Origin: a virus
Lineage: Duplodnaviria > Heunggongvirae > Uroviricota > Caudoviricetes
Direction: 5' to 3' (one strand)
Virus record (IMG/VR): IMGVR_UViG_3300040801_001888
Length of the DNA: 64,000 nucleotides
Positions 8,474 to 64,000 of this stretch are shown in pieces. Position numbers and translations under genes: made by a program. The notes beneath the pieces are model-generated. The model made no database searches. It had not been told where the DNA came from and saw only the letters and a program-made list of their open reading frames with translations. Position 1 is the stretch's first letter. Every line of letters begins with the position of its first letter.

Positions 8474-8767
8474 ATGAACGTAAAATCTACCGTAACCAAC
8501 GCATCCGTAGCCCTAGAGTGGGATTACACTGACGAAACCTACATCGATGGTTTTCGCATCTACGCCGACAACGAGCTGCGCTTGACCATCATGGACACCG
8601 CAAAGCGCAGCGTACCACTCGCCGACCTCGGGCTGAGCGTGGGTGTTCACATGCTCGTGGTCAAAGCATTCAACGTGGTCGGCGAGTCACATGTGAGTAA
8701 TCAAGTATTCCTCACCATCGTCGACGAGGAACCGGCTCCACCCACCAACTTTCGTGTCGCCTTTTAA
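8474..8767 (+). CDS. Ig/FN3-like domain protein
   Basis: 97 aa; strong RBS (gcaggagatttagATG). The pattern (EWDYTDETYIDGFRIY...LVVKAFNVVGES) resembles a fibronectin type III beta-sandwich. Confidence 0.45.
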   Translation: MNVKSTVTNASVALEWDYTDETYIDGFRIYADNELRLTIMDTAKRSVPLADLGLSVGVHMLVVKAFNVVGESHVSNQVFLTIVDEEPAPPTNFRVAF

Positions 8768-8800
8768 GCGATTCTTTCAATTATTCAAGAGACAACGATA

Positions 8801-32890: not shown

Positions 32891-33489
32891 CGGCGCGTTG
32901 GCCAGCCCCGATTAACCCGCGTTCGCAGGGTCTTCTCATTGATACCGAAGGCTTTTGCGGCGTCCGTAACCGTCATACGGCCTTTCGGGGTATCAAGAAA
33001 ATTATTGTCGCGGCGGTTCCTGTTTTGCGTCTGTCGACTCACCCACCTACAGTTCTCGGGAGAGTAATCTTTGTTATTGTCGATCCTATCTATCGTCATC
33101 CCGCCCTCGTAAGAGCTGGCCATGTCCGTAAAGAACTCCGCAAAATGAGACCACCGCGCGCAAACACTGATACCCCTACCACCGTAGTCGTCAAACTGAG
33201 CGTTATTTGGGTTAAAACAGCGTTGCCTGAGCTGTTTCCACACCCATCTGAGTTTCTTTTGCGTTGATGCCGTACTGTTGGCACCATGAGCGCAGTCTGG
33301 ACACGCCGCCTTTATCCCCTTTTTCTCGTGATTCCGTAGATATGACGCCGCCCTGACTACCTCAGCGCCACATTGACATGTACACCGCCACAACACGCCT
33401 TGCCCATTTGGACACGAGCCTACTTTCTCGGTAACAGCTAATAGCCCGAATGTTTGTCCTAGAATGTCAATAGCTTCAGCCATGCTCAA
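32845..33489 (-). CDS. HNH-type homing endonuclease-like protein
   Basis: Cys cluster (CTCQCG...CPDC) plus YGGRGISVCARW...IDRIDNNKDYSPENCRWVSRQTQNRN, characteristic of phage HNH_3/AP2-type free-standing endonucleases; inserted between thyA-like and the DNA polymerase. Confidence 0.45.
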   Translation of the reverse strand: MSMAEAIDILGQTFGLLAVTEKVGSCPNGQGVLWRCTCQCGAEVVRAASYLRNHEKKGIKAACPDCAHGANSTASTQKKLRWVWKQLRQRCFNPNNAQFDDYGGRGISVCARWSHFAEFFTDMASSYEGGMTIDRIDNNKDYSPENCRWVSRQTQNRNRRDNNFLDTPKGRMTVTDAAKAFGINEKTLRTRVNRGWPTRRCLIPPTTSKRYKKD

Positions 33490-36176: not shown

Positions 36177-36890
36177 TTAGAAGGCGTCCCAGGGCACATC
36201 AGCTGCCGCAGGAGGAGCAGCGGGCGGCGGCGGCGGGGCAGCCACGGCACCGGGCGGGGGCGGCGGGGGCGCAGCGGACATTCCCTCGAACGGGTTGGCG
36301 GCATCGTCCGCCTCGGCGATATCACCGAACGCGCCCTCAGCCGAGACGCGCGAATCGAAGCGCCCGACATCGCGCTGCGTCACGTAGACCGCGTTCAGCC
36401 CGACCGCGATGCCGCCGTCAGCGGGCGTGTTGAGGTAGGAGTACAGCGCGATCGACGCGTAGACCTCCATGCCGGAGAAGACCAGCGCCCGATCGGTATG
36501 TGGGTCGACGGGGATCGGTTTGCCCTTGATCGGACCCGCCTTGACGACGATCGGCGGCGAGGACGCGGCGCTCTTGGCGTTCAGCACAAAGCAGTCCTTG
36601 ATGTTCGCGTCTTGCGGGTACGCCCGGTTGGCGTCCTTCAGCGGGGTCTCGAACTTCATCGGCAAGACGCCGTCGGCCCATGCCTCATTCTTGACCTCCT
36701 CGATCAGGCGGTTGATCTCGGCAAGCAGTTGCGTATTGCTCGCCGGGATCACGATCCGCGCCGAGAACTTCGGATCACCGGACGGCTTCCCGTTGATCAC
36801 CGGCACGCGGGGCTCGAACAGCTCGGGGAAGCTCAAGCGGACCGGTGTGCTGGTGCGCTTGATTTGACGGTTTGCCTTCTTGTACGGCAT
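36177..36890 (-). CDS. DUF2815-like ssDNA-binding protein candidate
   Basis: N-terminus MPYKKANRQIKRTSTPVRLSFPELFEP; Pro/Ala-rich linker; acidic C-terminal tip DVPWDAF reminiscent of SSB C-terminal tails; adjacent to the DUF2800-like nuclease and polA. Confidence 0.55.
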   Translation of the reverse strand: MPYKKANRQIKRTSTPVRLSFPELFEPRVPVINGKPSGDPKFSARIVIPASNTQLLAEINRLIEEVKNEAWADGVLPMKFETPLKDANRAYPQDANIKDCFVLNAKSAASSPPIVVKAGPIKGKPIPVDPHTDRALVFSGMEVYASIALYSYLNTPADGGIAVGLNAVYVTQRDVGRFDSRVSAEGAFGDIAEADDAANPFEGMSAAPPPPPPGAVAAPPPPPAAPPAAADVPWDAF

Positions 36891-36936: not shown

Positions 36937-38343
36937 CTACAGGTCGCCGAACGCATCTTCCGCGCTGGCGGTCTGATTCTTGATTGCCTCACGAGGGTCT
37001 TCGATCGGCGCGATGGTCACTTTGCCGGGTGGTTTGACGATCAACCGCTGGAACGCCTTAAAGCGCGTGCTCATGGCATCCACCCCGTTGCTCTTCAGGA
37101 TCTTCTCCACCTGCGTCGGGCTCTTGAGCTTTTCCTCGTAGAGGTCTCGCTTACCCAGCCCCCGATCCTTCCCTTTCTCGGCGTCGTGGATCTTGACCTT
37201 CTTCAACTCGGCGAACATGTCCGCCTCGTCGTCGTACATCCACTTACGGTTCGAGCGCCCGCGCACCACCTTGTACCGGGCAGCGATCTCGTCCGGGGGC
37301 GAGTCGCTCTGCAGCTTGGCGAGCGCATACGCCTCAACTGCCTGCAGCATTCCGCTGATCGCCTCACGGGCGTCCAGCAGCCCGACGATCTGCCCGTCTG
37401 TCAGCGTGCGGGTATCCTGCGCCGCGAAGTCGAAGGCGGCTTGCGCCATCTCTAGCGTGGTGGCAGGCAGGTCCGCGCCCTCGTCAACGATGCCCATGGC
37501 GGTGAGCTGACTGCGGCTGTACTCCCCGCAGATCGGGCGCTCGTCGTACCCACCTTGCCCGCCGATCGGACAGAACCGACACCAGTCGCCCGCGACGAGC
37601 ACCGGGTCGTCGGTCACGACTCGGTACTCCGCCTCCGCGACCTCCGCCAGGAACTGGTCCATCCAGACCGCTGTGTTGGGAATCTCGATCCAGCGGATGC
37701 GCGGGTCGACCTTGTCGCAGCGGGGCTGGACGATGGTCAGACGGGACTGCACTGTATTCAGGTCGAAGTCCCTGTGAAGACCTTCCGCGCAGAGGGTGCC
37801 CACCAGGTAGAACGCGTTCTGAGGATCTTCCGGCGGCACCGGTACGCCGGCGCCGTGCTTGTAATCCACATGCTCGATGAAGACCACGCGGCCACCGATG
37901 GAGAGCAGCAGCGCAATGTCGCTGGTGCCATCGCACTCGGTATGCCCCAGCACCGGCTCCAGGCTGACCGGGCGTTCAGCTCGCACATCTACCTGGGCGT
38001 TGGGCACCCCGTCCTTGATCGTCTGCGCCTTCAGCGCGACTACTCGCTCCTCGACGTAGTCGAGGCACTCCTGCACGGCGATTGCGTCGTTGTCGGTAAA
38101 GAGCACCATGCGGGGCGGCAGCGCAGGCTCGGGGTACTCCTCGGCTATCCGGACTGACGGTGCGCAGTTCATCCACCGTTTGGCGCCGGACGGACTGCGC
38201 CGGGAGTGCGGACCATCCTCGACCCTGATCATCTGCCCTTCGAAGTCACTCGCGGCGGCGTCCAGCCCGTACTCGTAGATCATCAGCAGGCACTGCTCAA
38301 GCACCCAGTGCGCCGCCGTGCCTTGATCGGCGAAAACGCTCAT
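36937..38343 (-). CDS. DUF2800-like PD-(D/E)XK (Cas4-like) nuclease
   Basis: 468 aa with a C-terminal Cys cluster (DWCRFCPIGGQGGYDERPICGEY) typical of Cas4/DUF2800 FeS nuclease domains; conserved partner of DUF2815 + family-A polymerase. Confidence 0.6.
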   Translation of the reverse strand: MSVFADQGTAAHWVLEQCLLMIYEYGLDAAASDFEGQMIRVEDGPHSRRSPSGAKRWMNCAPSVRIAEEYPEPALPPRMVLFTDNDAIAVQECLDYVEERVVALKAQTIKDGVPNAQVDVRAERPVSLEPVLGHTECDGTSDIALLLSIGGRVVFIEHVDYKHGAGVPVPPEDPQNAFYLVGTLCAEGLHRDFDLNTVQSRLTIVQPRCDKVDPRIRWIEIPNTAVWMDQFLAEVAEAEYRVVTDDPVLVAGDWCRFCPIGGQGGYDERPICGEYSRSQLTAMGIVDEGADLPATTLEMAQAAFDFAAQDTRTLTDGQIVGLLDAREAISGMLQAVEAYALAKLQSDSPPDEIAARYKVVRGRSNRKWMYDDEADMFAELKKVKIHDAEKGKDRGLGKRDLYEEKLKSPTQVEKILKSNGVDAMSTRFKAFQRLIVKPPGKVTIAPIEDPREAIKNQTASAEDAFGDL

Positions 38344-38879: not shown

Positions 38880-40457
38880 CTACAGCACGATGGTCAGGTG
38901 CTTCTTCGCCCGCGTCATGGCGACGTAGGTCAGTGCCTGTCCCATGATGCCTCTGGTCGCGAGCAGGCTTTTCGGCGCGCAATAGGCGTAGTCGCAGGTC
39001 TGCCCCTGCGAGCGATGCACGGTGCTCGCGTAGGTGTAGGCCACGCGGACATAGTCGTTTTGCAGACGGCGCCAGTAGCCCCAATCGCCGTGCTCCTTGC
39101 CGTAGGCACGGGCAGCGGCGAGTGCTTTGCCGAACTCGGCGGCGCCTAGCTTGGACTGATCGAGCGAGGACTCAGTGGCACCGAAGATCAGACGCACCGG
39201 CATCTCGCCCTCTCTCAGGGTCGCCTGGTAGTGCGGGATCTGGAACGTCTCGCCGCCGATGTAGATCTGGTGCGTGGAGCGCTGGACGTCAGCGGCGTGA
39301 AAGCTCTGCCCTGAGTAGTATCGAATCCCGCCCATCTCGCGGGACAGGCCCGAAGGGTAGTCGGTGGTGGCGAGGATCATCAGCTGCTCGTCCTCGATGA
39401 CGACCGACTCAGCTGCCTGCTCGGCGCCGAACAGCTTCTCGCGGATCGAGTTGTTCGCCTGGACCACGCCGGCGCGCGTGAACAGCATCATGCGGTGCAG
39501 AGCACCAGGGTCAGCCTTGAACCGCATGACGAAGTCATCGATCAGGGCGTCGACGCTGGTTACCGCGCGGACCTCCGGGCTTTCCTTGACGTCGGCAGCG
39601 GACCAGCCCCAGGCGCTGTTCGGGTTGTTACGCACGGCTTGTTCATAGCTGAACAGGTGACTGTCGCGGGAGTACCGCATCGGTTCGGTCAGGGTCGCCG
39701 CCCGGTCGATGTTGCAGCAGCGGCTAATGGTCGCCTGCTTGACTGGGGGCAGCTGGTGATCGTCACCGACCAGGATCAGACGCCCGCCGCGACGCTCAGC
39801 GGTCGAGATCAGACGGTCAGCCATGGCGTCGTCGATCATACTTGCTTCGTCGACGATGAGCGCCTGCCCCTCGGTCAGCAGTTCGTTCAGCTGGTCCTGG
39901 CTATCACCGGTGAAGACGTAGGCCTCCTGGTCGTCGTTCCAGACCTTCTCCAGCTTCACGGTCCGGGCGACGGTCCCGGTCTCGACGCCGAACGGATCGA
40001 GTTGCGCCGCCAGCACCTGGCTCGCGACGTAAGAGACCGCCATGGCTCGGGTGGTGTAGCCCAGCTTCGCCAGCTCGGTAACGAGACCAGCGGTCACGTA
40101 GGACTTCCCATAGCCGGCGCCGCCGTAGAGGGCTGCCACGCGGTTGTCGTCATCGAAGTGGGAAAGCACCTCGCCAACCGCGCCCTGCTGGTGCGGGGTC
40201 AGGGTAAGAGCACGGGACGCCTCAACAGCCTTCCCAGACTTCACGTCCTGGATGACGTCGCGGATCGCGTCAGCGTTATCGGCGACCCACGGGTGCTCAG
40301 CGTTGGACAGCATCCAGGAGAGGTAGTCCGGTGCGATCTCCGCAAGCTCGCGAACGTCGGTTCCGCGATGCTTACCGAATGGCACAACAAGGCGCTCATC
40401 AGCGTTATCGAGGGAGTCAATAATGTCGAAAACGCCGGAAAAGTCGAAAGAAGGCAT
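38880..40457 (-). CDS. RecD/Pif1-like superfamily 1 DNA helicase
   Basis: Walker A ALYGGAGYGKSYV, motif II LIVDEASMI, motif III ILVGDDHQLPPV. Confidence 0.8.
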   Translation of the reverse strand: MPSFDFSGVFDIIDSLDNADERLVVPFGKHRGTDVRELAEIAPDYLSWMLSNAEHPWVADNADAIRDVIQDVKSGKAVEASRALTLTPHQQGAVGEVLSHFDDDNRVAALYGGAGYGKSYVTAGLVTELAKLGYTTRAMAVSYVASQVLAAQLDPFGVETGTVARTVKLEKVWNDDQEAYVFTGDSQDQLNELLTEGQALIVDEASMIDDAMADRLISTAERRGGRLILVGDDHQLPPVKQATISRCCNIDRAATLTEPMRYSRDSHLFSYEQAVRNNPNSAWGWSAADVKESPEVRAVTSVDALIDDFVMRFKADPGALHRMMLFTRAGVVQANNSIREKLFGAEQAAESVVIEDEQLMILATTDYPSGLSREMGGIRYYSGQSFHAADVQRSTHQIYIGGETFQIPHYQATLREGEMPVRLIFGATESSLDQSKLGAAEFGKALAAARAYGKEHGDWGYWRRLQNDYVRVAYTYASTVHRSQGQTCDYAYCAPKSLLATRGIMGQALTYVAMTRAKKHLTIVL

Positions 40458-40546: not shown

Positions 40547-40990
40547 TTAAAGCTTGCTCAGTGCCCTGGCGCGACACTTCGGACCCATGCCGACGGCAAT
40601 CGATTCCGGCACTGTGAGCAGCCGCCCGCAAGAGGAACACTCGCCTGAGGTATAAAACGACAACTTTTCAGGCAGTTGCTCGCGTGTCTGTAACACGCCC
40701 AGGAGCCACTCGATCACCGCGTCTCTGCCGCCACCACGCGCGCACCGGTAGGCGAACTTGTGCTCGTGGGGCTGCCCGGGGACGATGCTGCCAACGTACT
40801 CGTAGTCGGTTCCGTTCTCGGGTCCGACCAGGCGGTTGACCCAGTAGATTGCTTCGCCATTGCGGCCCTCGCGCTCGATCACGCGGTAGGTCCGACGGTC
40901 GCCCGTGGCGTGCGAGACCAGGGTGAAGGTCGCCTTCTTGCCGAGCATGTAGGCAAGCCCGTCCCGGCAGTTGGTGAGTTCGGCGGTCAT
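40547..40990 (-). CDS. hypothetical protein with a C-terminal zinc-ribbon-like CxxC...C pair
   Basis: 147 aa; ...GECSSCGRLL...GPKCRA; its own consensus promoter lies upstream. Confidence 0.35.
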   Translation of the reverse strand: MTAELTNCRDGLAYMLGKKATFTLVSHATGDRRTYRVIEREGRNGEAIYWVNRLVGPENGTDYEYVGSIVPGQPHEHKFAYRCARGGGRDAVIEWLLGVLQTREQLPEKLSFYTSGECSSCGRLLTVPESIAVGMGPKCRARALSKL

Positions 40991-43545: not shown

Positions 43546-45609
43546 CTAGACCGCTTGTTTCGGGTCGACAATGACGGTCAGCGGTCGACCATCGGTCCGC
43601 AGGTGGATCGTCGCATCACGCGTCTCGGCGAAGCCCAGTCCGCTAAGCTGCTCCGCAGTGGGCTGGATCGCCATCCGCCCGGCGAGCACCTCGAATACCT
43701 TGCGATGCTCTCGGAGGTCCGGGCGCAGGAACTCGTTATAGAATCCCGGCACGGTCTCGTCGGTCCGGCACTTGTCGATCAGCAGCATCCAGTGCTTGTT
43801 GCCACTGGCTTTCCCGCGCCAGTAGTTCGGGCTCAACGTGATGATGTTGACCTCGTGGTAGGCGTCGAGGGCGAGACCCCACTGTTCCGCTACCGCCGGA
43901 CCACTGGTCTCGGAGACGCCTCGCTCAACCCGGAAGTCCGTGACCTCACCGCCTTTGATGGTCATCACGGCTACTTTGGCGGTCGCTCCTGACGTCCTTG
44001 GCGACTCGACCATCGACAGGTGGCGCGTCTGCCCATCGATCTCGATCTCGATCTCGAAGCCGGAGTCGATGCGCTCGCGACGCGTGAAGTTGACGACCGC
44101 GATGCGGTAGTCGCCATCGGGCATGACCTTCTGCCAAGTGACGTTCTCGACAGCATTCCTGACGGGCTTGGCTACGTTCATGTCGACGTCTAACTCGCCT
44201 TTGCTCAACTCCCCCCGCTTGTCGTGGTAGAAGATGTGCTCTTGCCTCCCGGAATTATTCGCCGGAAAGTAGAGAACGTGCAGGTCCAGGTCGTCGGTGT
44301 TGTGCCACGACAAGCTGACCCGTCCCCAGCCGGTGACGTTACCTCCGGCACGCTTCACGCGCTCCTTGATCGAGTCCGTGACGCCGCCCCGGTAGGACCA
44401 CGCGATGGGCGAGCCCCATGCCAGCAGCGACGGCGCCTCCGGGTTCTGGGCGGTGGTCAACGTGACCAGGTTGCTGACCAACGGCGGTTGGAACAGCACC
44501 TCCAGCTTCCGGCACTCGCGCTCCTGGAGCACCTGCGGCAGGTGCTGGATCGGCACGATCTCTCCGTGCGTGGCAGTCGGGCGGCGCCGACGCGGAGCAG
44601 CGATATCGCCGGCGAGAATGTCATCGATCGTCTGGCGCATCTTAGGCGCGGTCGAGCGATTGACGAACAGCACGTCGGCGACGCTCAGGTCCGCCTCAGT
44701 CGCTAGGCGGCGCGGCAGGCTATCCAGCAGGCCAAGCTCGGTGATCGTGTCTTGCGCCTTGCTGACCATCATTGCGCTGATCGCTGCCGACGAGCGCTGA
44801 TAGTTGCCCGGTGCGACGATCCGCTCATAGACCCGGACGGCGTCGTCGAGGTTCACGGCTTCCGAGATGCTCACGAGCAGCGTGCCGATCGAGCTGTTGC
44901 GCAGTAGCAGACGGTGGTCGAACACGCGGCTCCAGACGTAGCGCTCACGCTGCCAAGAGCCCGACGGCAACGCCTCGTAGGCGATGCTAGCGTCGAGTAG
45001 CGCCTGCACAGAGTCTCTGTTCTGTGCGCCACGGTACAGTCCGTTGTCGATCAGCTCGAGCAGCGTGCGGATGTGCGTGCTGTTGATCTCCGCCAGCGTC
45101 CGCGCGATGACTCCAGCATTGGTCTCGATCGGCCCCTGCTTGTTGCGCGGGATAGGCGCGAACCGTGCGCGCGGGATCTCACAATGGAAGTGATGCCATG
45201 CGATCTCGCCGCCGTCGGCTGCCTCGTACGTGACCTCCGCGCCGGCCTTGCGCTCCTTCGAGAAGAACACCGTGCGGATCGCCGCCTGGGAGACGAGATC
45301 ATGCAGCGCCTTCGCGACGGTACGGTAGGGCTCGGGCAGACGATCGTAGCCGGACCAGATGGTCTCCAGGGTCAAGGCAGGCGTGATCGCAACAACGTTG
45401 CCCATCTGCTTGATGAAGCCCCTGCAGCAGGAGCAATCGTGCTCGGTACGCTCGCGGAACAGCGGGTCAGTACCGGGCGGGAACGCACCGAGGTAGGTGG
45501 TCCAAAGATCGTCACCGGACACGTCAGCGACGTAGGGCGTACCGCTCATAATGCGGTCGGCGGATCGGCGGACGTTATCGGCGAACAGCGTGAATTGATC
45601 GGTAGACAT
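43546..45609 (-). CDS. large early protein of unknown function
   Basis: 687 aa with HDCSCCRGF near the N-terminus; no P-loop or other recognisable catalytic signature; strong coding-like composition. Confidence 0.5.
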   Translation of the reverse strand: MSTDQFTLFADNVRRSADRIMSGTPYVADVSGDDLWTTYLGAFPPGTDPLFRERTEHDCSCCRGFIKQMGNVVAITPALTLETIWSGYDRLPEPYRTVAKALHDLVSQAAIRTVFFSKERKAGAEVTYEAADGGEIAWHHFHCEIPRARFAPIPRNKQGPIETNAGVIARTLAEINSTHIRTLLELIDNGLYRGAQNRDSVQALLDASIAYEALPSGSWQRERYVWSRVFDHRLLLRNSSIGTLLVSISEAVNLDDAVRVYERIVAPGNYQRSSAAISAMMVSKAQDTITELGLLDSLPRRLATEADLSVADVLFVNRSTAPKMRQTIDDILAGDIAAPRRRRPTATHGEIVPIQHLPQVLQERECRKLEVLFQPPLVSNLVTLTTAQNPEAPSLLAWGSPIAWSYRGGVTDSIKERVKRAGGNVTGWGRVSLSWHNTDDLDLHVLYFPANNSGRQEHIFYHDKRGELSKGELDVDMNVAKPVRNAVENVTWQKVMPDGDYRIAVVNFTRRERIDSGFEIEIEIDGQTRHLSMVESPRTSGATAKVAVMTIKGGEVTDFRVERGVSETSGPAVAEQWGLALDAYHEVNIITLSPNYWRGKASGNKHWMLLIDKCRTDETVPGFYNEFLRPDLREHRKVFEVLAGRMAIQPTAEQLSGLGFAETRDATIHLRTDGRPLTVIVDPKQAV

Positions 45610-46384: not shown

Positions 46385-46412
46385 ATTATACAGTAGCTAA
46401 CGTGTCAGTCAA
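46385..46412 (-). promoter_or_regulatory. sigma70-consensus promoter (TTGACT-N16-TATAAT) + conserved 60-nt leader
   Basis: Minus-strand TTGACTGACACGTTAGCTACTGTATAAT; leader ...ggtcagggagcaacccggaccatcaaccacaaccgcaacctgagaggaaagaccATG. Confidence 0.6.
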
Positions 46413-46520: not shown

Positions 46521-47222
46521 TCAGCGGCGGCTAATCGGAGAGGCCGCTGGCGTTGACCTGCGCTGCCCAATCATGGACTTACGTTTGTTTGAACGCTCGC
46601 GCGCTAAGCCAGGGTTGCCTTTCCAGGAGGATTCGTAGCTCTCCGGCAAACGGGCTTTTTTGACCTTTATGGCGTAAATCAGCTTCGGAACCACTGTCTT
46701 GCGCGTGTGCTTAGCTTTTAGCCCGCCGCTCCCTTTCTCCTGGGCGTGTTGTTTCGTGTTCCCCTTGGTGACCCCGAGAAAGGTCCAGTTGTCCGCGAGG
46801 TAGAGCGTACCTAGTCGATCGGATTGCCCGTCGCGGCGTTCCTCAATAATGAAGGTCTCGAACCCGGCGACCTTCACGCCGTAAAGGTACTCCCAGTCCC
46901 ACGCGATCCGCTTGCGCCAAGCGGACAAGATGCGCGTGGCTCTGTTTGGCGCGGGCACCTCGAGCCTGAAAACGTTGTTACTGATGATCCCGTTCAGCTG
47001 CACTTGCTTGACCGCTTTGCTTTTGCTGAGACCGAAAAAACGATCGCGCGGACCGACGTCGTACGTTGCGCTGGCGCCGCTGATGATGCCGACCAGCTCG
47101 CCGCTGTCAAACGCCAGGTAATGCAGTTGCTGACCGTGGCATCCGCTGTTAGGGATGTAGTGTCGGTCTCGGATCGACTTATAGCGCGGGTCGGTGCGCT
47201 TAACACATTCAAGTTCAATCAT
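46521..47222 (-). CDS. R-M-operon-associated protein of unknown function (basic C-terminal tail)
   Basis: 233 aa; 4-nt overlap with the REase-like gene; C-terminal ~80 aa are Lys/Arg-rich; no DPPY/NPPY motif. Confidence 0.45.
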   Translation of the reverse strand: MIELECVKRTDPRYKSIRDRHYIPNSGCHGQQLHYLAFDSGELVGIISGASATYDVGPRDRFFGLSKSKAVKQVQLNGIISNNVFRLEVPAPNRATRILSAWRKRIAWDWEYLYGVKVAGFETFIIEERRDGQSDRLGTLYLADNWTFLGVTKGNTKQHAQEKGSGGLKAKHTRKTVVPKLIYAIKVKKARLPESYESSWKGNPGLARERSNKRKSMIGQRRSTPAASPISRR

Positions 47223-48969: not shown

Positions 48970-48997
48970 ATTATACAGTAGCTAGCGTGTCAGTCAA
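48970..48997 (-). promoter_or_regulatory. sigma70-consensus promoter (TTGACT-N16-TATAAT) driving the MTase/REase operon
   Basis: Near-identical copy of the 46,385 element, including the same long leader and the RBS gagaggattccgcactATG. Confidence 0.6.
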
Positions 48998-51045: not shown

Positions 51046-51073
51046 ATTATACATGGCTTGCGTGTCAGTGCAA
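51046..51073 (-). promoter_or_regulatory. sigma70-consensus promoter (TTGCAC-N16-TATAAT)
   Basis: Minus-strand TTGCACTGACACGCAAGCCATGTATAAT + leader catcgcagcaacaaacgcaacctaagaggaacgccgatATG. Confidence 0.6.
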
Positions 51074-51927: not shown

Positions 51928-51955
51928 ATTATACAGGGCTTGCGTGTCAGTGCAA
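51928..51955 (-). promoter_or_regulatory. sigma70-consensus promoter (TTGCAC-N16-TATAAT)
   Basis: Identical core to 51,046 and 54,876; same CATCGCAGCAACGAACGCAACCTAAGAGGAACG leader. Confidence 0.6.
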
Positions 51956-54826: not shown

Positions 54827-54875
54827 GTCGTTTTACCTCATGTTTGCCGCAGCGGTTGTTGCTGCGATGGAGAGT

Positions 54876-54903
54876 ATTATACAGGGCTTGCGTGTCAGTG
54901 CAA
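54876..54903 (-). promoter_or_regulatory. sigma70-consensus promoter (TTGCAC-N16-TATAAT)
   Basis: Identical core; located between the terminator at 54,936-54,972 and the gene starting at 54,826. Confidence 0.6.
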
Positions 54904-54935
54904 GCCTTTTTCGATACTATTTTTCTTCAGACAAA

Positions 54936-54972
54936 GAAAAAGCCCCCGCCAGTTTCCCGGTGGGGGCTTTCT
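54936..54972 (-). terminator. rho-independent terminator (leftward)
   Basis: GCCCCCGCC...GGTGGGGGC hairpin followed on the minus strand by TTTTTCTTTGTCT; sits between the gene ending at 55,000 and the next promoter. Confidence 0.55.
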
Positions 54973-54999
54973 ATCGGGTCGCGCTCTATCTAACGAGCG

Positions 55000-55419
55000 T
55001 TACGCCATGCCAGCAAACTGGGTTGGGGCCGGCGGCGGCGGGGGAGGAGGGGCTGCCTGGACTGCCGGGGCTGCCTGGGCGGCGGCTGCCTGGGCGGCTG
55101 CCTTGGCTGCCTGCTTCTCCTGCTCAGCCTTGGCGGCTTCGTCGGCATAGAACTGATCGGACAGTTGCCTGGCAGCCGGCGACAGCAGGCCCTCGGCTTC
55201 CAGCCAGCTGAGCAGCGGCAGGCCGATGGTTTCGACGCGTGTCATCTGAGCACGCACGGCGCGGTCGGACATGTCAGCCGGATACTCGACAGTCTGCAGG
55301 AACAGCTGAATAAGTCCGCCGTGGGAAGCTCGGGCCTCGTGGGCGATCATCGCGGACTGACTCAGGAACTCGGTGCCGTCGGCGGCAATCCAGACTTCGC
55401 GTTGTACTTTCTGACCCAT
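55000..55419 (-). CDS. hypothetical protein with an Ala/Pro-rich C-terminus
   Basis: 139 aa, followed by the terminator at 54,936-54,972. Confidence 0.35.
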   Translation of the reverse strand: MGQKVQREVWIAADGTEFLSQSAMIAHEARASHGGLIQLFLQTVEYPADMSDRAVRAQMTRVETIGLPLLSWLEAEGLLSPAARQLSDQFYADEAAKAEQEKQAAKAAAQAAAAQAAPAVQAAPPPPPPPAPTQFAGMA

Positions 55420-55666
55420 AGTGGGATTCTCCGTGGTGTGTTGTGGGGGTTTAGCGGGGTTAACGTGTCTGCACTAGCGCACACCGGTTAGTATACGGCG
55501 CGCCGTGAGATTGTCAAACCGTTGATTCTACTGGTACGCCGTTCCAGACCGACGAACGGCTGTCTGGTGCGCTTGTGCCGACTTATCTGGTGCGGCTATC
55601 CTGGAAAGTCCGGCTGCCGTTCGGGCGGTCCTTAACCACAATGAGAATCAGTTATGAAACTACCAA

Positions 55667-55710
55667 CAAAAAAAACCCCGGGGCAGGGTATGACTGCGCC
55701 GGGGCTTGGT
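55667..55710 (-). terminator. rho-independent terminator (leftward), upstream of the rightward primase gene
   Basis: CCCCGGGGC...GCGCCGGGG hairpin; on the minus strand it is followed by T8. Confidence 0.5.
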
Positions 55711-55771
55711 TCATCCATCAACCGAGGGTACTACGCTACAGGCACTCGAAACACGCTAGGAGACGTGCAAG

Positions 55772-58700
55772 GTGGATAATATAGACAACACATCACCCGC
55801 GCAACCCCCTTTTTCCTTTGTCCCGCCAAACGGTCCGATCTCGAATCGCTCCTTCCTTGAAACCATTGCCCGATTCGTGCCTGAGAGGACCGAGAGCGGG
55901 GAAGTTATCTATCTCTGGATGACATCCTTCTTCGGCGATCCTAACGACGCCGGGCGGACTGAGTGGCGCGGTCGACCTCTCTTCCGCCCGCTGAGCAAGA
56001 GCATCACCGAGATCGATGAACGGGCGGTGTCGAATCGGTTCTTCACCGTCTCGGCCTTCGCGCCGTCTGACCGGGGGTCCATGACCCGATCGCAGGCAAC
56101 GTTCCGCCTGTGGTTCGTGCTGGTGATCGATGATGTCGGCGACGGGCTTGGTGCGAAGGTGCCTTGGTCGAAGCTGCAGGGTCATAGTGAGCCGACCTAC
56201 GTGATGGAGACCTCGCCGGGTAACTTCCAGGTCGGGTACGTGCTGAGTGAGCCCGTGGAAGATCGGGCAACAGCGGACGCCGCGCTCGATGCGATGATCT
56301 ACCAGGGGCTCGGGCTCGAGTCAGACCCCGGGATGATCAGCGTGACGCGCAACGTGCGCCTGCAGGGCTACAACGGCAAGGCGAAGTATCGGGCGGATGA
56401 CATGGGGCTCGGTTTCACGCTGCCGCTGTCCGAGGCGCCACGCGTTCGGCTGGTCCACTGGCGTCCGGAGGTTTGCTACGCCTTGGATGAGATCGTTGAT
56501 GGCTTCGGGCTCGACCTGGAGAAGGCGCGGGTCGGGGCTGGTGCTGGCGCCGGGAACATGGGTAGACCGGGGATGGCTGTCGAGGACGATCCCTGGGTCG
56601 AGGTGTGGCACCGTGCCGGCTTTGTTAAGGGCGGCGTTGTGGACAAGGGGCATGGCGGGTCATGGCTGGAGGTGACATGTCCGCAGGTGGCGGAGCATAC
56701 GGGCGGGGTGGACGATGGGTCCGCCTACGCCATCGGCGGCGGCATGCGCTGCCATCACGGTCACTGCGAGACGCTGAACTGGCCCCAGGTGCGGGACATG
56801 TTCCTGCGGGGCGAGCACGGCGAGGATGCCCGGCGGGCGGCGATCGATGCCTACGCGGTCGAGTTGCTCGGTGGTGGCGGCGATGGTGGGCGCGAGGGTT
56901 TGGTTGCGCTCGAGAATGAGATCGAGCGGCTGAAGGACGAGCCGCTGGAGCGCCCTAAGATGGTCATTGCGGACCGGGGGGACGGTGGGGGCTCCGGGGA
57001 TGGTGGGGGCGGGCTCGCTGGTGCCGGCGGGGAGGGCGGGGTCGCGGGGATTGTGGTGGACGTGCCGCAGGCGTTCAGCTTCGAGACACTGCTCAAGCGA
57101 GCCTCAGAGTTCAAGCATCCCACCGGGGATAGTGCCGCCATAGCGGAGGCACACCGGGAGATCCAAGCCTTCCTGCGGGACGTGGCGATGTCCGGCTTTG
57201 GTCCCGGGCGTCTGACCAAGTCGGAAGACAAGGCGGTCATCGATGAGCTTGCGGACAAGCTCGGGGACGGCTTTGGCTCGCGGCAGCTTGCCAGCGACCT
57301 CAAGGCCGCGCGCGAGAAGATCCAGAACGAACTGGAACGGGCGCAGCGGGAGCAGCACCGGGCCGAGTTGCTGGCGGAGACCGAGGCCCTGGCGGCAGCG
57401 GGGGAAGTTGGCGCCTGGAAGCCGCGCGCGGTCGTCCAGGACACGGACCTGTTCAAGGATAACTCCGGCGATCCTGATAACCCTACCTACCTGCTCACCG
57501 CCAACAACACCAAGGTGATCCTGGACGCCATGCGGGTGTCGGTCTGGTTCGACTTGATGGTGAAGACGGAACGGTTCGACAACATCCCGGAAGGGACGTC
57601 GGCCATGGAGGTGCTGAACCATATCCACGACAACTGCATGCTCAACGAGCTGAACAAGGGCAAGGTCTCGCTCGGGCAGGTGCGGGAGAAGGTCCGGGCG
57701 ATCGGCGCCAGGAACGCCCGGCACCCGTTCGAGGAGTACCTCAAGCAGCTGCCCGCCTGGGATGGCGACGATCGCATGCCCAAGCTGTTCAACGCGATCA
57801 AGGTGCCCAGCGGCGACGACGCCGAGATCAAACGGCGGAACCTGATCCTGGAGCGGTGGCTGTTCAGCATCATCGGCGCGGCGCTGTTCCTTTATAAGGG
57901 CGTGCCAGGCGCTCAGCCGAGGCTGGTGCTGGCGCTGAGCGGCGGGCAGCACATCGGCAAGACTACCTGGGCGGCGAAGCTGTTCCGGGGGATCTTTCCC
58001 GGAAGCGACCAGTGCTATATGGGCGGCAGCCGGTTCGGCACGGACAAGGACTCGATCGAGAAGCTGATCAAGCACCTTGTCTGCGAGCTGGGCGAGCTGG
58101 AGACCAGCACGGGCAAGACCGGGGAGCTGAAGCAGTTCCTGTCCGCTGACGTCGATGAGTACCGCCGGCCTTACGATGCGGAGGTGTCGACGTTCTATCG
58201 GCGCTCGGTTTATCTCGGCACCGTCAACCCGGACGGGAATGGCTTCCTACCCGACCAGACGGGCAACAGCCGGTTCGGCGTGGTCAACGTCTCCAAGGTC
58301 GACCTCAACGCCATCGACGACCTGCTGGAAGGCGAGGGAGTCCATCAGCTGTGGTCGGAGATCCAGACCAAGTGCCTGGAGGCGTGGCGGGAGTGCCATG
58401 CCTACGTGGGCAAGGTGGTCCCGGGGAAGCCCTACGCGCCGTGGCTGCTGACTGCGGAGGAGATTGAGCTGATCGGAGTGGGTAATGAGGCGCATCGGGA
58501 GGTGCCGGAGATCGAGGAACTGCTCGACGACGTCTTCGACTGGGATGACGAGTTCTGGAGAAAGGCGTTAGACGACGACGATCATCTGCTGGCGCTACGG
58601 TTCAACCCGATGACGCGGGCGCAGGTCGTCGGGCATCTGCGCTCCTACACGACAGGGGCGCCGCGCGGGCTCAGCCTGATGCTGCGTAAGCGTATCGGTT

Positions 58701-58870
58701 GCGGAACGCCGGTACCGACCGAGGTGAAGGCATTATCCGGCATCGTTCACAAGGGGCGCCTTTGGCCGATGCCGCCGTTCACCGCGAACACGCAACGGGC
58801 TACAGCTGAGGAGATCGCGGCGGCGGTGACGCCTCCGGAGGACTCTCCCGGAAGCGTCAAACCGAACTAA
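55772..58870 (+). CDS. prim-pol / P4-type primase-helicase (D5-like NTPase)
   Basis: 1,032 aa; the N-terminal prim-pol-like domain includes the VLVIDDVGDG acidic motif; C-terminal Walker A LALSGGQHIGKTTWAAKLF typical of P4-alpha/D5 family helicases; the only large rightward gene inside the leftward early block. Confidence 0.8.
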   Translation: MDNIDNTSPAQPPFSFVPPNGPISNRSFLETIARFVPERTESGEVIYLWMTSFFGDPNDAGRTEWRGRPLFRPLSKSITEIDERAVSNRFFTVSAFAPSDRGSMTRSQATFRLWFVLVIDDVGDGLGAKVPWSKLQGHSEPTYVMETSPGNFQVGYVLSEPVEDRATADAALDAMIYQGLGLESDPGMISVTRNVRLQGYNGKAKYRADDMGLGFTLPLSEAPRVRLVHWRPEVCYALDEIVDGFGLDLEKARVGAGAGAGNMGRPGMAVEDDPWVEVWHRAGFVKGGVVDKGHGGSWLEVTCPQVAEHTGGVDDGSAYAIGGGMRCHHGHCETLNWPQVRDMFLRGEHGEDARRAAIDAYAVELLGGGGDGGREGLVALENEIERLKDEPLERPKMVIADRGDGGGSGDGGGGLAGAGGEGGVAGIVVDVPQAFSFETLLKRASEFKHPTGDSAAIAEAHREIQAFLRDVAMSGFGPGRLTKSEDKAVIDELADKLGDGFGSRQLASDLKAAREKIQNELERAQREQHRAELLAETEALAAAGEVGAWKPRAVVQDTDLFKDNSGDPDNPTYLLTANNTKVILDAMRVSVWFDLMVKTERFDNIPEGTSAMEVLNHIHDNCMLNELNKGKVSLGQVREKVRAIGARNARHPFEEYLKQLPAWDGDDRMPKLFNAIKVPSGDDAEIKRRNLILERWLFSIIGAALFLYKGVPGAQPRLVLALSGGQHIGKTTWAAKLFRGIFPGSDQCYMGGSRFGTDKDSIEKLIKHLVCELGELETSTGKTGELKQFLSADVDEYRRPYDAEVSTFYRRSVYLGTVNPDGNGFLPDQTGNSRFGVVNVSKVDLNAIDDLLEGEGVHQLWSEIQTKCLEAWRECHAYVGKVVPGKPYAPWLLTAEEIELIGVGNEAHREVPEIEELLDDVFDWDDEFWRKALDDDDHLLALRFNPMTRAQVVGHLRSYTTGAPRGLSLMLRKRIGCGTPVPTEVKALSGIVHKGRLWPMPPFTANTQRATAEEIAAAVTPPEDSPGSVKPN

Positions 58871-58909
58871 AAGCGTAGTGGCGACTTAGCCCCCTGAAAC
58901 GTAGGGACA

Positions 58910-58950
58910 GGCGAGACTTTCGGGGAGATCCCGGGTCTCGCCTTTTTTTT
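58910..58950 (+). terminator. rho-independent terminator of the primase-helicase gene
   Basis: GGCGAGAC...GTCTCGCC 8-bp stem (with inner GAGATCCCGGGTCTC palindrome) followed by T9. Confidence 0.7.
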
Positions 58951-58967
58951 TCAGCGCAATTTTTTTC

Positions 58968-59038
58968 TTGCGAAAGTTTTTTTGCGAAAGTTTTTTTTGC
59001 GAAAGTTTTTCGCGCTGTTTCTTTTGCGAAAATTTTTT
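58968..59038. repeat. four direct iterons TTGCGAAAGTTTTT, origin-like
   Basis: cttgcgaaagttttttt / ttgcgaaagttttttt / ttgcgaaagttttt / ttgcgaaaatttttt at 14-15-bp (then 27-bp) spacing immediately after the primase terminator. Confidence 0.6.
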
Positions 59039-59039
59039 G

Positions 59040-59300
59040 TACGAGAAAAAAAGCGTGAAGGCCCCGACGTTTTGGAACGCCATTTTCAAAACGTATGGTA
59101 AAACGTAGGGGAGAAAAATATGCCTATTTTCAATGCTTTAACTGTCTATAAACTACATAACTACGTTACTACGTTTAGTTTGGAAAACTCTATATAGGAA
59201 TTCTCTTTTTGGAATGTGTATGAATTAGGGCAAAAGTACACGTTCCCAAAATACAAACTGAAATGTATATAATGTTTGGGAGGGCCACGTAGGGCGTAGA
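59040..59300. other. AT-rich island (about 30-35% GC against ~60% background) with repeated AACGTAGGG / ACTACGTT motifs
   Basis: Visibly A/T-dominated sequence with no convincing ORF; motifs aaacgtaggga, aaacgtatgg, aaacgtagggg, cacgtagggcgtagaaacgttgg. Confidence 0.55.
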
Positions 59301-59377
59301 AACGTTGGTTCAGCCGCCTTGCGGCGGTCTGTTCCGGGAGGGCGCGATTTGTACACGAAAGCGCGGTGCTTGACAAC

Positions 59378-59416
59378 GAAAAGCCCCGACCGCATCGCTG
59401 CGGTCGGGGCTTGGTT
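59378..59416 (-). terminator. hairpin terminator downstream of the MTase-nuclease cassette
   Basis: GCCCCGACCGCATCGCTGCGGTCGGGGC perfect 11-bp stem; minus-strand tail TTTTCGTT. Confidence 0.5.
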
Positions 59417-60597: not shown

Positions 60598-60632
60598 GTT
60601 CACATTTGTGAACAGACACAAACTGATGTGTC
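60598..60632. promoter_or_regulatory. two adjacent palindromic operator-like sites upstream of the TTG start of the phage Dam gene
   Basis: GTTCACATTTGTGAAC (perfect 7-2-7) and GACACAaactgatGTGTC (6-6-6). Confidence 0.45.
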
Positions 60633-60671
60633 GAGACAAGCATAGTGTAACGAAGACAAAGAACGCAAGCA

Positions 60672-60708
60672 GCAAAAAAGCCCCGATCGCATCGCTGCGA
60701 TCGGGGCT
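60672..60708 (-). terminator. rho-independent terminator (leftward) upstream of the MTase-nuclease cassette
   Basis: GCCCCGATCGCATCGCTGCGATCGGGGC (near-identical to the 59,383-59,410 hairpin) followed on the minus strand by T6; a second hairpin (CCCCGGTGC...GCGACCGGGG) lies at 60,731-60,760. Confidence 0.55.
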
Positions 60709-60793
60709 TGATCTGGTGCTACAATGCGAAACCCCGGTGCACTACGAATGCGACCGGGGCTTCTCCCTCAACACCTCACAGACAGGTATCAAG

Positions 60794-61459
60794 ATGCTTC
60801 CCATCTTAGCAGACACGTCAGTCTCCATGAACAGCCGCGAGATCGCGGAGCTGGTCGATTCTCGCCATGACAGCGTTAAGCGTGCTGTTGAGCGCCTCGC
60901 CGAAAGAGGAGTTATCACCCAGCCACCGACGGTGGATGGGATGAAATCAGCAAACGGCGTGATCGAAAAGCTCTACGTCTTCGACCAGGCGCACAAACGC
61001 GATTCCATCGTGGTGGTGGCACAGCTAAGCCCTGAGTTCACCGGCAAGCTGGTGGATCGCTGGCAAGAGTTAGAGGCGGGGGCTAAGCCGGTCGCCCTCT
61101 CAACCGGCGCTTTTCTGCTCCAGCAGGCGCAGATGCTCTACGAGATGGAACAGCGCCAGGCAGCAGCTGAGCAGCGCCAGGCGGCGACCGAGCAGCAGGT
61201 TGCGAAGATCACGGAGCGGGTCCAGCAGACGGAGACGGCGGTCGACTACTTCAGCGTGATTGGTTACCACCGTTACGTGCGGCGTGACGGTGATCTGACG
61301 CTGCCCCAGGCACAAGCCATGGGTAAGACGGCGACCGGATATTGCCGGGACCACGGCGTGCCTATGGCCGAGACCCCGGACCCCCGCTTCGGACGGGTCA
61401 ATACCTATCCGAAGTGGGTTCTTGACCACCTGTTCGGACCTGAGCAGTCCGCGCTGTAG
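60794..61459 (+). CDS. Rha-family phage regulatory protein
   Basis: MNSREIAELVDSRHDSVKRAVERL matches the conserved Rha N-terminal motif; start chosen downstream of the tandem minus-strand terminators that lie in the annotated 5' extension. Confidence 0.5.
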   Translation: MLPILADTSVSMNSREIAELVDSRHDSVKRAVERLAERGVITQPPTVDGMKSANGVIEKLYVFDQAHKRDSIVVVAQLSPEFTGKLVDRWQELEAGAKPVALSTGAFLLQQAQMLYEMEQRQAAAEQRQAATEQQVAKITERVQQTETAVDYFSVIGYHRYVRRDGDLTLPQAQAMGKTATGYCRDHGVPMAETPDPRFGRVNTYPKWVLDHLFGPEQSAL

Positions 61460-62523: not shown

Positions 62524-62551
62524 ATTATACAGGGCTAGCGTGTCAATGCAA
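62524..62551 (-). promoter_or_regulatory. sigma70-consensus promoter (TTGCAT-N16-TATAAT)
   Basis: Minus-strand TTGCATTGACACGCTAGCCCTGTATAAT upstream of the 62,488 start. Confidence 0.55.
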
Positions 62552-62763: not shown

Positions 62764-63102
62764 GTGACATCGAGATGGCAGGCCCAGCGCTCCCAGAAGC
62801 GCGTTGACCCGTTCTACCGGTCGAGTTCATGGGCACGACTGCGCAACGCGGTCCTGCGGGCGCAGGGGCGCCGCTGTAGCGTCTGCGGGGCGACTGAAGG
62901 GCAGATGCACGTCGACCACATCATCAGCCGCAAGACGCGCCCAGACCTCGCCCTAGCGGCGGACAATTGCGTGGTGCTCTGCCACGCGTGCCATTCGCGC
63001 AAGACGGCGCGTCATGATGGTGGCTTCGGGAACAGGCAGCGGGCTGGACCGCTCGGATGTGATGCCTCCGGCGAGCCGGAAGGAGAACGGGAAGGATGGT
63101 GA
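62764..63102 (+). CDS. HNH endonuclease
   Basis: CSVCG...HVDHIISRK...NCVVLCHACHSRK is a canonical HNH ββα-Me motif with two CxxC pairs. Confidence 0.6.
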   Translation: MTSRWQAQRSQKRVDPFYRSSSWARLRNAVLRAQGRRCSVCGATEGQMHVDHIISRKTRPDLALAADNCVVLCHACHSRKTARHDGGFGNRQRAGPLGCDASGEPEGEREGW

Positions 63103-63111
63103 GGCAGCCGG

Positions 63112-63375
63112 TCAGGCGTTAACGCGTCGATAGTTGCGTATCTTACTCGGTCCTTTTGCGAAGACTTCCCGGATATTCAACGGACGACCCACCTTGGTCA
63201 TAGCATCCAGGAAAAGGGCATAGTCCCGATCTTCCTCTAAATAGACGAAACGTCCGTTTTCGTAGGAGAAAGAGGAAATATTCTCGTAAATTCCGAGGCT
63301 CAAAACCAGCGTTTTAGAGACTCTGAGCCAACCGTGCGATGGATCAGAGAAAGCAGTGCAATTGTAAGTCTTCAT
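63112..63375 (-). CDS. hypothetical protein (first leftward early gene)
   Basis: 87 aa, immediately downstream of the rightmost consensus promoter. Confidence 0.35.
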   Translation of the reverse strand: MKTYNCTAFSDPSHGWLRVSKTLVLSLGIYENISSFSYENGRFVYLEEDRDYALFLDAMTKVGRPLNIREVFAKGPSKIRNYRRVNA

Positions 63376-63426
63376 GGGGATACCTCTCAGGATTTGGCTG
63401 TTGTTGCGAACTGCGACGATGGATGC

Positions 63427-63455
63427 ATTATGCGGGAGTGTAGCTAGCGTGTCAA
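63427..63455 (-). promoter_or_regulatory. sigma70-like promoter (TTGACA-N17-CATAAT), rightmost early promoter
   Basis: Minus-strand TTGACACGCTAGCTACACTCCCGCATAATG upstream of the 63,375 start. Confidence 0.5.
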
Positions 63456-63479
63456 GCTTTTATTTCATCGATTTGAAAG

Positions 63480-64000
63480 AAAAAGATCGAAAGATAGGAT
63501 GGTCCCACCCTTCAGGTGGTTGCGGTAGGTTTTTGTATTGCCTCAGACGGTTGTAGCGGCAAAGCCGTAAGATAAGTTGGTTCCAGACCTTGACACCCTA
63601 GGGTAGATTTTTCGGTAGAATTTCGGGTTGCCTCAGGTGGATGTTCGCTAAGTCGTTGAAAACAAAGTCGAACGATAAGACGACCTTTACCCTCAAGAGG
63701 TTGCGGTAGAATTTTCGGTAGATTCGAGGCTTCGTTCGCTAAGTCGTTGATTTCAAAGGCGAACGATAAGACGACCTTTACCCTCAAGAGGTTGCGGTAG
63801 GTTTTCGCAAAGCCTCGAGCCGATCTATGGGGTCGTCCACGATTTGGCGTGTCCACATTTCGTGACCTTGACTGAGAAGCAGTCGCATTTGCAAGTGCTT
63901 GATTTTTGGTAGAATTTTCTGAAACCACGGGAAGCCGAGCCCGCTGTTCCGTCTCGCAGACGGCATCGGGAAGCCGAGCCCGCTGTTCCGTCTCGCAGAC
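63480..64000. repeat. non-coding repeat-rich region to the right of the early block
   Basis: Perfect 41-bp direct repeat cgaacgataagacgacctttaccctcaagaggttgcggtag at 63,669-63,709 and 63,760-63,800; at least 6 copies of GGTAG(A/G)(A/T)TTT(T/C)G; a 33-bp duplicate gggaagccgagcccgctgttccgtctcgcagac at 63,929-63,961 and 63,968-64,000. Confidence 0.6.

Follow-up and report, generated by a model that had tools for sequence, protein, structure and literature searches.

A candidate replication origin 3' of a RepB'-like primase-helicase gene in an uncultivated tailed phage

The tailed-phage record IMGVR_UViG_3300040801_001888 was analysed over a stretch of 64,000 nucleotides, hereafter the window, in which a large plus-strand primase-helicase gene stands within a block of leftward genes and is followed by short repeats and AT-rich DNA. 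Does the phage begin its replication there, with the product of this gene as initiator, and does the gene belong to the same replication set as its neighbours? A likely origin beside the gene had been proposed in an earlier sequence-only reading of this DNA, and the proposal has gained support from a layout that recurs in relatives, from the co-variation of the C-terminal domain with the repeats (iterons) and from homology to Rep1 of the Staphylococcus aureus pathogenicity island (SaPI) SaPI1. We consider it quite probable that the region 58,9xx-59,31x is the origin of the phage and the upstream gene its initiator, that is, an origin in the style of SaPI, P4 and pRN1 which would be read by a self-loading primase-helicase. 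Homologous loci are referred to below by labels such as L115.

The primase-helicase gene and the region 3' of it

The gene and the parts of its product are as follows (aa, amino acids).

55772-58870, plus strand: primase-helicase-initiator gene, 1032 aa, with a GTG start and an AGGAG Shine-Dalgarno sequence at 55759-55763, 8 nt upstream
55772-56806, plus strand: N-terminal RepB'-like archaeo-eukaryotic primase (AEP) domain with the zinc motif C303...H309...C327-H-H-G-H-C332
57449-58552, plus strand: VapE-like or superfamily 3 (SF3)-type helicase core, about aa 560-927 (Pfam VapE-like at aa 657-865, E 1.5e-30)
58553-58867, plus strand: putative C-terminal winged-helix domain, about aa 928-1032, the proposed reader of the iterons and variable half of a specificity cassette

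The match of the N-terminal domain to Pfam RepB_primase (aa 116-243) is marginal, with 26.3 bits against a gathering cut-off of 24.3, and the primase assignment is complemented by a match to the DNA primase family phrog_4861 at aa 105-319 and by the alignment of homologues, in which VIDDxGDG, ETSPG and the C...H...CHHGHC zinc motif are among the invariant motifs of the primase part. Glycine-rich and coiled-coil linkers span about aa 345-560. The helicase part matched a helicase family of PHROGs, and the sole PDB match found by sequence was 7PDS, the SaPI1 Rep1-DNA complex (E 1.5e-13, aa 644-863). The Pfam scan of the 1032-aa protein at E <= 0.1 gave VapE-like, RepB_primase and two sub-threshold matches and nothing else; Toprim, Prim_Zn_Ribbon and D5/D5_N domains were not found in it, and RepB_primase was reported instead of Prim-Pol (PF09250-type). 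RepB_primase and Prim-Pol both have AEP-like folds. Thus, of the description of the protein as prim-pol/P4-alpha-like, the primase-helicase part stands, while the homology to P4 alpha gives way to an RepB'-type AEP joined to a VapE-type helicase.

In the public call of the Joint Genome Institute (JGI) the identical protein, P0001, has 983 aa and starts at the ATG at 55919, 49 codons later. The longer, 1032-aa form is preferred because the residues encoded before that ATG (55772-55918) are conserved in P0002 and P0003 and because L116 has the same GTG start and similar first codons. This conservation, together with the AGGAG-GTG start at 55772, indicates that the real protein is 49 residues longer than the public call.

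Downstream of the gene the elements follow one another in this order.

58898-58905, plus strand: outlying AACGTAGG-type iteron, with counterparts near the stop codon in L115, L116 and L002
58909-58951, plus strand: intrinsic terminator of the primase-helicase gene, a stem of at least 9 pairs and then U9 (-24.9 kcal/mol, z -3.5)
58962-59038, plus strand: T-rich array of 14-15-mers, TTGCGAAAG followed by T5-8, with four units and one degenerate unit
59064-59109, mixed strands: iteron set A, with copies at 59064-59071 (minus), 59090-59097 (plus) and 59102-59109 (plus)
59110-59159: AT-rich spacer 1, about 50 bp, with a site like that of integration host factor (IHF), TTTCAATGCTTTA, at 59128-59140 (one mismatch)
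59160-59175, minus strand: iteron set B, the two tandem copies ACTACGTT ACTACGTT, opposite in orientation to set A and overlapped by the least stable duplex
59176-59285: AT-rich spacer 2, about 110 bp, a candidate melting or priming region
59206-59278: conserved island of spacer 2, with the inverted repeat GTGTA (59216-59220) / TACAC (59237-59241) and with TGTATATAAT at 59264-59273
59286-59308, plus strand: iteron set C, with copies at 59286-59293 and 59301-59308, oriented as the direct copies of set A
59381-59412, minus strand: terminator of the leftward Dam/PD-(D/E)XK operon with a 14-bp stem (-30.2 kcal/mol, z -6.4), kept in L116 and forming the right boundary

The iterons are concentrated in this region. 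Eight of the 45 matches to AACGTAGG in the window (at most one mismatch) fall within 411 bp (58898-59308), for which about 0.3 would be expected from their density, and both exact copies as well as all three AAACGTAG 8-mers of the window lie inside those 411 bp. The AT-rich patch pointed out by the sequence-only reading is indeed the lowest in GC of all 300-bp stretches of the window: 58951-59280 has 34.2% GC, compared with 59.3% for the window and 44% for the next lowest stretch. Here too, at 59147-59196, is the 50-bp duplex with the lowest stability in the 64 kb, at -54.7 kcal/mol against a mean of -74.8 (standard deviation 5.0). Folding of the single strand gave z scores of -2.3 for the window, -3.0 for L002 and -3.7 for L037, which reflect the stem-loop potential of the inverted iterons.

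The strong plus-strand terminator and the four repeats behind it had been described earlier and are both present; the repeats are TTGCGAAAGTTTT at 58968-59036, three exact copies and one with a single mismatch, the sole matches in the 64 kb. They belong to the T-array, which has a period of 14-15 (TRF).

A minus-strand open reading frame (ORF) at 58886-59089 (65-67 aa), called as a gene in L001, was judged spurious and probably an artefact of the gene caller, because it is uncalled in the equivalents of L002, L115 and L116 and overlaps the terminator and the array.

From the observed anatomy, homology, layout and co-variation we infer the following course of binding, melting, self-loading and priming. 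The winged-helix domain would bind the eight AACGTAGG-type iterons, whose three sets alternate in orientation around the two AT-rich spacers. Hexamers would form at these sets and open the very unstable DNA of the spacers around 59147-59196. The helicase would load itself with no separate loader, and the tethered primase would make the first primers. [quoted passage not shown]

Co-variation of the C-terminal domain with the iterons

Homologues of the full-length protein are rare. The close family consists of the window with its identical sibling contig L001, of L115 and L116, which are 70-80% identical in the C-terminal half, and of L002 and L003 at 38-39% (38% for L003). Those relatives for which downstream sequence is present, L002, L115 and L116, repeat the layout of the window element by element as far as each extends, the contig of L115 stopping just short of the expected right-hand iteron set. 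The shared order is stop codon, T-array, direct iterons, AT-rich DNA, inverted iterons, AT-rich DNA and direct iterons. Each relative fills this order with iterons of its own (TGTAGCA / CTACAG in L002, GTGACA in L115 and TGTAGTC in L116) and with its own T-run array. In a four-way MAFFT alignment of the origins, only the window and L002 aligned convincingly.

The comparison with L115 and L116, which are about 86-90% identical to the window in the gene, reveals where the iterons part company. Over 54873-58552 the DNA of L115 and that of the window are 89.6% identical. Per block of 60 nt the identity is 92-100% over 57,900-58,500, falls to 35-63% from about 58,560 to 59,220, and is again at least 83% at 59,220-59,280, inside spacer 2, where the L115 contig ends. 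Similarity of L116 to the window breaks at 58501, which is also the point where L115 and L116 diverge from each other. In the gene the break corresponds to codons 910-927, where the C-terminal domain starts and from where the identity of the proteins collapses. Similarity stops at the start of the domain and returns, in L115, only in spacer 2; the C-terminal domain has thus changed along with the iterons. In these alignments, the two co-vary while the helicase core and the spacer-2 island stay constant. Of all the evidence, this co-variation speaks most strongly for the repeats being read by the protein, and we conclude that the domain and the iterons probably make up a matched specificity pair which differs among otherwise near-identical phages.

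The same comparison bears on which repeats would be read. The sequence-only reading had taken the repeats directly behind the terminator for the iterons of the candidate origin; the AACGTAGG repeats fit this role instead, having the opposed arrangement of SaPI origins and co-varying with the C-terminal domain. Arrays at the position of the T-array are found in L115, L116, L002 (inverted) and L037, and those of L115 and L116 share a TGTGCAGA core, although the two phages differ in C-terminal domain and iterons. Because the core does not track the domain, the T-array was rejected as the initiator's iterons, and its TTGCGAAAGTTTTT repeats are probably not the sites at which the protein is bound as initiator. 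By analogy we infer that the T-array is an auxiliary element of the origin, with a role like that of the 13-mers of unwinding elements or as a second class of binding site.

The spacers hold further signs of conservation. The spacer-2 island, which would be a further auxiliary element of the origin, is 83.6% identical to L115 between flanks which are unalignable, and an exact search for it in the viral contigs found none. GTATATA occurs on the plus strand as a single copy in each of L002, L037 and L004, about 13-31 nt before the right-hand iterons. This part of spacer 2 could serve for priming or as a weak promoter. At the position of spacer 1, a TCAATAG-type stretch was seen by eye in L002 and L037. 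A more speculative reading, to which we give little credence, is that of a two-layer origin, in which an exchangeable layer of winged-helix domain and iterons, swapped among phages about 86-93% identical in the gene, is combined with a conserved one consisting of the spacer-2 island and possibly the T-array. In that reading, the conserved layer would be a fixed site of priming or of single-stranded DNA (ssDNA) capture for the shared RepB'-like primase and helicase core. If this were true, phages would diversify the specificity of their origins, perhaps as a guard against cross-activation, incompatibility or satellites that hijack them, and would retain one shared start site for the AEP primase; such a site has so far been undefined for this primase family in phages.

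With terminators on both of its sides, the region could also be one of transcriptional control, composed of terminators, a promoter and operators, the repeats then being operators for autoregulation of the primase-helicase or for another regulator. Spacer 2 does hold a weak promoter-like TTCCCA-17-TATATA / TGTATATAAT, resembling the TGTATAAT -10 boxes of the phage (see below), and the units of the T-array resemble small terminators. Nevertheless, the repeats sit 3' of the gene beyond its terminator, and no copy of the iteron occurs upstream in 55420-55771. The promoter scan found no consensus sigma-70 promoter in the region, and no gene starts beside it on either strand between the primase-helicase gene and the leftward operon, whose adjacent gene ends there. 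Moreover, the placing of opposed iteron sets on either side of the least stable DNA agrees with the architecture of an origin, and a purely regulatory region appears improbable to us.

The arrangement in L002 invites another explanation, that of a packaging site (pac or cos) with repeats which bind the small terminase subunit. There, an HNH endonuclease gene, 54% identical to the one at 62764-63102 of the window, directly follows the repeat region; genes of this kind accompany terminases at cos sites, and pac and cos sites often carry repeats and bends. In the window, however, the HNH gene is 3.4 kb away and has a low-GC, repeat-bearing flank of its own at 63201-63807. It is the C-terminal domain of the primase-helicase, and no packaging gene, with which the repeats co-vary, and unrelated genome contexts show the same layout behind their primase-helicase genes. 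We therefore regard a packaging site as very improbable.

These contexts came to light in the wider family of the primase domain (about aa 23-342), which is common in viral contigs and proteobacterial genomes, either alone (about 310-350 aa) or fused to a helicase. Partners in the fusions were VapE, DUF5906, AAA_25, DUF3987 or none that was detected, and RepB_primase was also matched in the homologues L004, L037, L095, L107 and L111. Among the 22 loci in which the primase domain is fused to a helicase and downstream sequence is present, nine have the GC minimum of the locus 3' of the gene at a distance of about 0-600 bp, where about 1.7 such loci would be expected. Seven fused loci contain 7-11 copies of a 7-mer 3' of the gene and L004 contains 4, the background median being 3. 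Clusters of the type direct/AT/inverted/AT/direct are clear in L004, L014, L037, L081 and L107, and the 7-mer counts revealed dense clusters directly after the gene in L102 and L111. The pattern of GC minimum and iterons holds alike for VapE, DUF5906, AAA_25 and DUF3987 helicases. At loci with a stand-alone primase, no iterons were found directly after the primase gene, the flank that was checked there, as distinct from the helicase genes.

Two further observations were made at these loci. The origin-like region of L037 contains three perfect DnaA boxes TGTGGATAA (8560-8590 and about 8905), and the relatives may accordingly differ in their dependence on host DnaA. Second, longer tandem-repeat arrays lie beyond the iteron and AT-rich regions in L081 (about 8760-8960, about 50 bp x4) and L014 (about 8765-8860, about 30 bp x3).

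Several points weigh against the region being the origin and the gene its initiator. The close family is tiny, and the co-variation therefore rests on four independent pairs of domain and iterons; moreover, the assembly that yielded L115 and L116 has apparent frameshifts. No DnaA box (at most one mismatch) was found in the origin of the window, and the promoter scan found no consensus sigma-70 promoter upstream of the primase-helicase gene. Iterons were not seen 3' of the gene at some fused loci (e.g. L011, L023 and L088). The T-array and the spacer-2 island are left unexplained by the model. Finally, the cumulative GC skew, a check which the sequence-only reading had suggested, rises monotonically through the site with no extremum and is for this reason uninformative.

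A probable single replication set, and other features of the window

A divergent junction lies between the leftward block and the primase-helicase gene.

55490-55517, minus strand: sigma-70-like promoter TTGACA-16-TATACT (11 of 12 matches) which starts the leftward gene block, at the left edge of the junction
55667-55710, minus strand: intrinsic terminator, a hairpin with U8 (-23.9 kcal/mol, z -3.7), 60 nt upstream of the start of the primase-helicase gene

The sequence of the block around the promoter is kept in L115 and L116. The minus-strand terminator, already recognized in the earlier reading, has counterparts in L115, L116, L002 and L003, in each case a hairpin after an A-run with a different stem sequence, and it probably shields the divergent promoter region from antisense transcription.

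Beyond the junction, the leftward block encodes PolA (33486-35573), the gp2.5/Enc34-type SSB (36177-36890), the DUF2800 nuclease (36937-38343), the RecD-like superfamily 1 (SF1) helicase (38880-40457), an SNF2 helicase and thymidylate synthase, together with a weak, sub-threshold match to a deoxynucleoside monophosphate kinase. Is the primase-helicase, with its origin, a recent and separate acquisition, for instance from a satellite or a P4-like element, which would give the phage two independent replication systems? The orientation of the gene is opposite to that of its neighbours, the C-terminal domain and the iteron segment are exchangeable between relatives, and across phages the primase domain is found in promiscuous fusions with different helicases. 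The earlier reading had inferred such an acquisition from the orientation and from a break in composition. The break is confined to the AT-rich intergenic DNA; the gene itself has 64.6% GC, like the 61-66% of the block from PolA to the helicase.

The relatives speak against separate acquisition more directly. L003, whose protein is 38% identical, keeps the same divergent junction and has counterparts there of 55000-55419, of 40547-40990 and of the RecD-like helicase by homology. In L115, the SSB, DUF2800 and RecD-like genes are followed by the divergent junction and the primase-helicase, and L116 has the same junction beside the same replication genes. The DUF2800, PolA and primase-helicase genes of L014 are all on one strand. 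A comparable cluster, of an AEP primase-SF3 helicase with DUF2800, DUF2815 and DNA polymerase, appears in the annotation of another phage (PMC7996906). To judge from the alignments, the mosaic part is limited to the last ~100 codons and the origin and does not extend to the whole gene. The family scans found no other primase or hexameric helicase in the 64-kb window, so that the notion of two replication systems, like that of the acquired module, lacks support, and by its predicted functions the primase-helicase completes the PolA set and duplicates nothing in it. We hold a separate acquisition of the module, with two replication systems as its result, to be highly unlikely.

Searches beyond these loci returned little. 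Neither the region nor 1-25000 matched any of 50,697 phage records in Megablast, and the tRNA and Rfam scans of the window found nothing. Searches with the helicase alignment yielded just two 25%-identical loci in metagenome contigs and none in viral contigs.

The remaining observations concern other parts of the window. Seven exact TGTATAAT boxes occur in it, all on the minus strand, where 0.37 would be expected.

22365-22372, 46385-46392, 48970-48977, 51046-51053, 51928-51935, 54876-54883 and 62524-62531, minus strand: exact TGTATAAT boxes

Six of the seven lie in a repeated leftward promoter cassette of 60-100 bp, which consists of an A/T-rich upstream stretch, a TTGACT or TTGCAC -35 element, a spacer of 16-17 nt and TGTATAAT. 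The -35 element is situated inside a palindrome, GGCTTGC-N8-GCAAGCC, which could be an operator.

The terminator at the right boundary of the candidate origin has a near-identical partner: 59381-59412 and 60678-60709, both on the minus strand, are hairpins with 14-bp stems, AAGCCCCGA(C/T)CGCAGCGATGCG(G/A)TCGGGGCTT. The second of them lies within the 5' end of a Rha-like ORF (60608-61459), the start of which has for this reason probably been called too early. This ORF also qualifies the statement that the primase-helicase gene is the only large plus-strand gene in the leftward block; it remains the large one, with the smaller, plus-strand Rha-like ORF nearby. Farther to the right, the HNH endonuclease gene (62764-63102, plus strand) is followed by the low-GC stretch 63201-63807 with a 91-bp tandem repeat (63643-63807), a candidate cos or pac region.

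Long plus-strand ORFs at 1-26 kb are read as putative structural genes. Among the ORFs of the plus strand, that at 3666-7679 (1337 aa) contains several arrays of 9-nt repeats (e.g. 4843-4900 and 5979-6045), a hint of collagen-like Gly-X-Y tracts in a tail fibre. On the minus strand, 46521-47222 in the early region encodes a 233-aa protein with a Druantia DruA domain (Pfam E 2.7e-14) that may be a defence-related or counter-defence gene. The 687-aa product of 43546-45609 (minus strand) has no Pfam match and is covered almost end to end by PHROG 1735 (unknown function; E 7.6e-187); this large protein of the replication and early block is conserved in phages.

Comparison with known systems

The alpha protein of P4 consists of a DnaG-like Toprim primase with a zinc ribbon, a D5_N/P4-type SF3 helicase and, at the C-terminus, a winged-helix domain for origin binding. 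Its TGTTCACC iterons are split between ori and crr, about 4.5 kb apart, whereas the origin proposed here is a single compact region 3' of the gene. As no Toprim, Prim_Zn_Ribbon or D5_N was detected in the protein of the window, its primase is not homologous to that of P4 alpha. On the basis of domain content, P4 alpha is a functional analogue and not a member of the same family. The comparison with P4 and with phage-inducible chromosomal islands (PICI), which the sequence-only reading had recommended, was thus borne out for the sequence-level layout of SaPI and not for the domains of P4.

[quoted passage not shown] The window shares both this logic and the 3' position of the element. The element of pRN1 is a stem-loop of about 100 nt and has no iterons (PMC4234260), in contrast to the discrete iterons and weak stem-loop (z -2.3) of the window, which has RepB_primase and not Prim-Pol.

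Unwinding elements of oriC and of RK2 oriV contain repeated 13-mers that are bound by initiators on one strand (PMC4980987). The window resembles them in having T-rich direct repeats of 13-15 nt beside initiator sites and AT-rich DNA, and differs from them in that its proposed initiator is itself the helicase-primase and in that its origin has no DnaA box (at most one mismatch). With RSF1010 the likeness lies in the N-terminal domain, which reaches the Pfam threshold of RepB_primase. RepB' of RSF1010, however, is a stand-alone protein that acts on two ssDNA hairpins (ssiA and ssiB, on opposite strands), and the RepA helicase and the iteron binder RepC are separate; in the protein of the window, all three functions are proposed to be fused, and no hairpins of ssi type were identified, no comparison with ssiA or ssiB having been made.

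The best-matching design is that of SaPI. SaPI origins lie immediately 3' of rep and contain 6-12 short iterons, at least two per side in opposite orientation, with an AT-rich centre; Rep reads them by a C-terminal winged helix and loads itself, the specificity of the origin is matched to the type of Rep, and PriRep5 of SaPI5 is a fused primase-Rep (PMC9371898). The helicase core of the window is homologous to Rep1 (7PDS), and primase and helicase are fused as in SaPI5. Sets A (the two plus-strand copies) and B (both minus) face each other across spacer 1, and sets B and C flank spacer 2. The differences from SaPI and other PICI are equally clear. The window belongs to a tailed phage of full size, which has its own PolA, SSB, nucleases and thymidylate synthase and is no satellite; its primase is a RepB'-type AEP. 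Its iterons are 8-10 bp long and form three sets around two spacers, where SaPI have penta- or hexamers and one AT region, and it carries an extra T-rich 14-15-mer array.

The proposed pair provides a concrete candidate for origin and initiator in uncultivated, PolA-encoding phages of roughly 76 kb or more. It would extend the SaPI-style design, with its 3' origin, self-loading primase-helicase and matched pair of winged helix and iterons, to full-size phages and to lineages of Gram-negative type, and the design appears to hold here across four helicase families fused to one primase domain. By exchanging domain and iterons, near-identical phages offer a natural experiment on the rules of DNA recognition, and the exchange could serve for orthogonal replicons. 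The design itself is a known one, of which this locus is a good example, and current concepts of replication initiation are unchanged by it. Since the window is not a satellite and yet shows the sequence-level features of SaPI origins, it would represent a SaPI-like replicon without being a SaPI.

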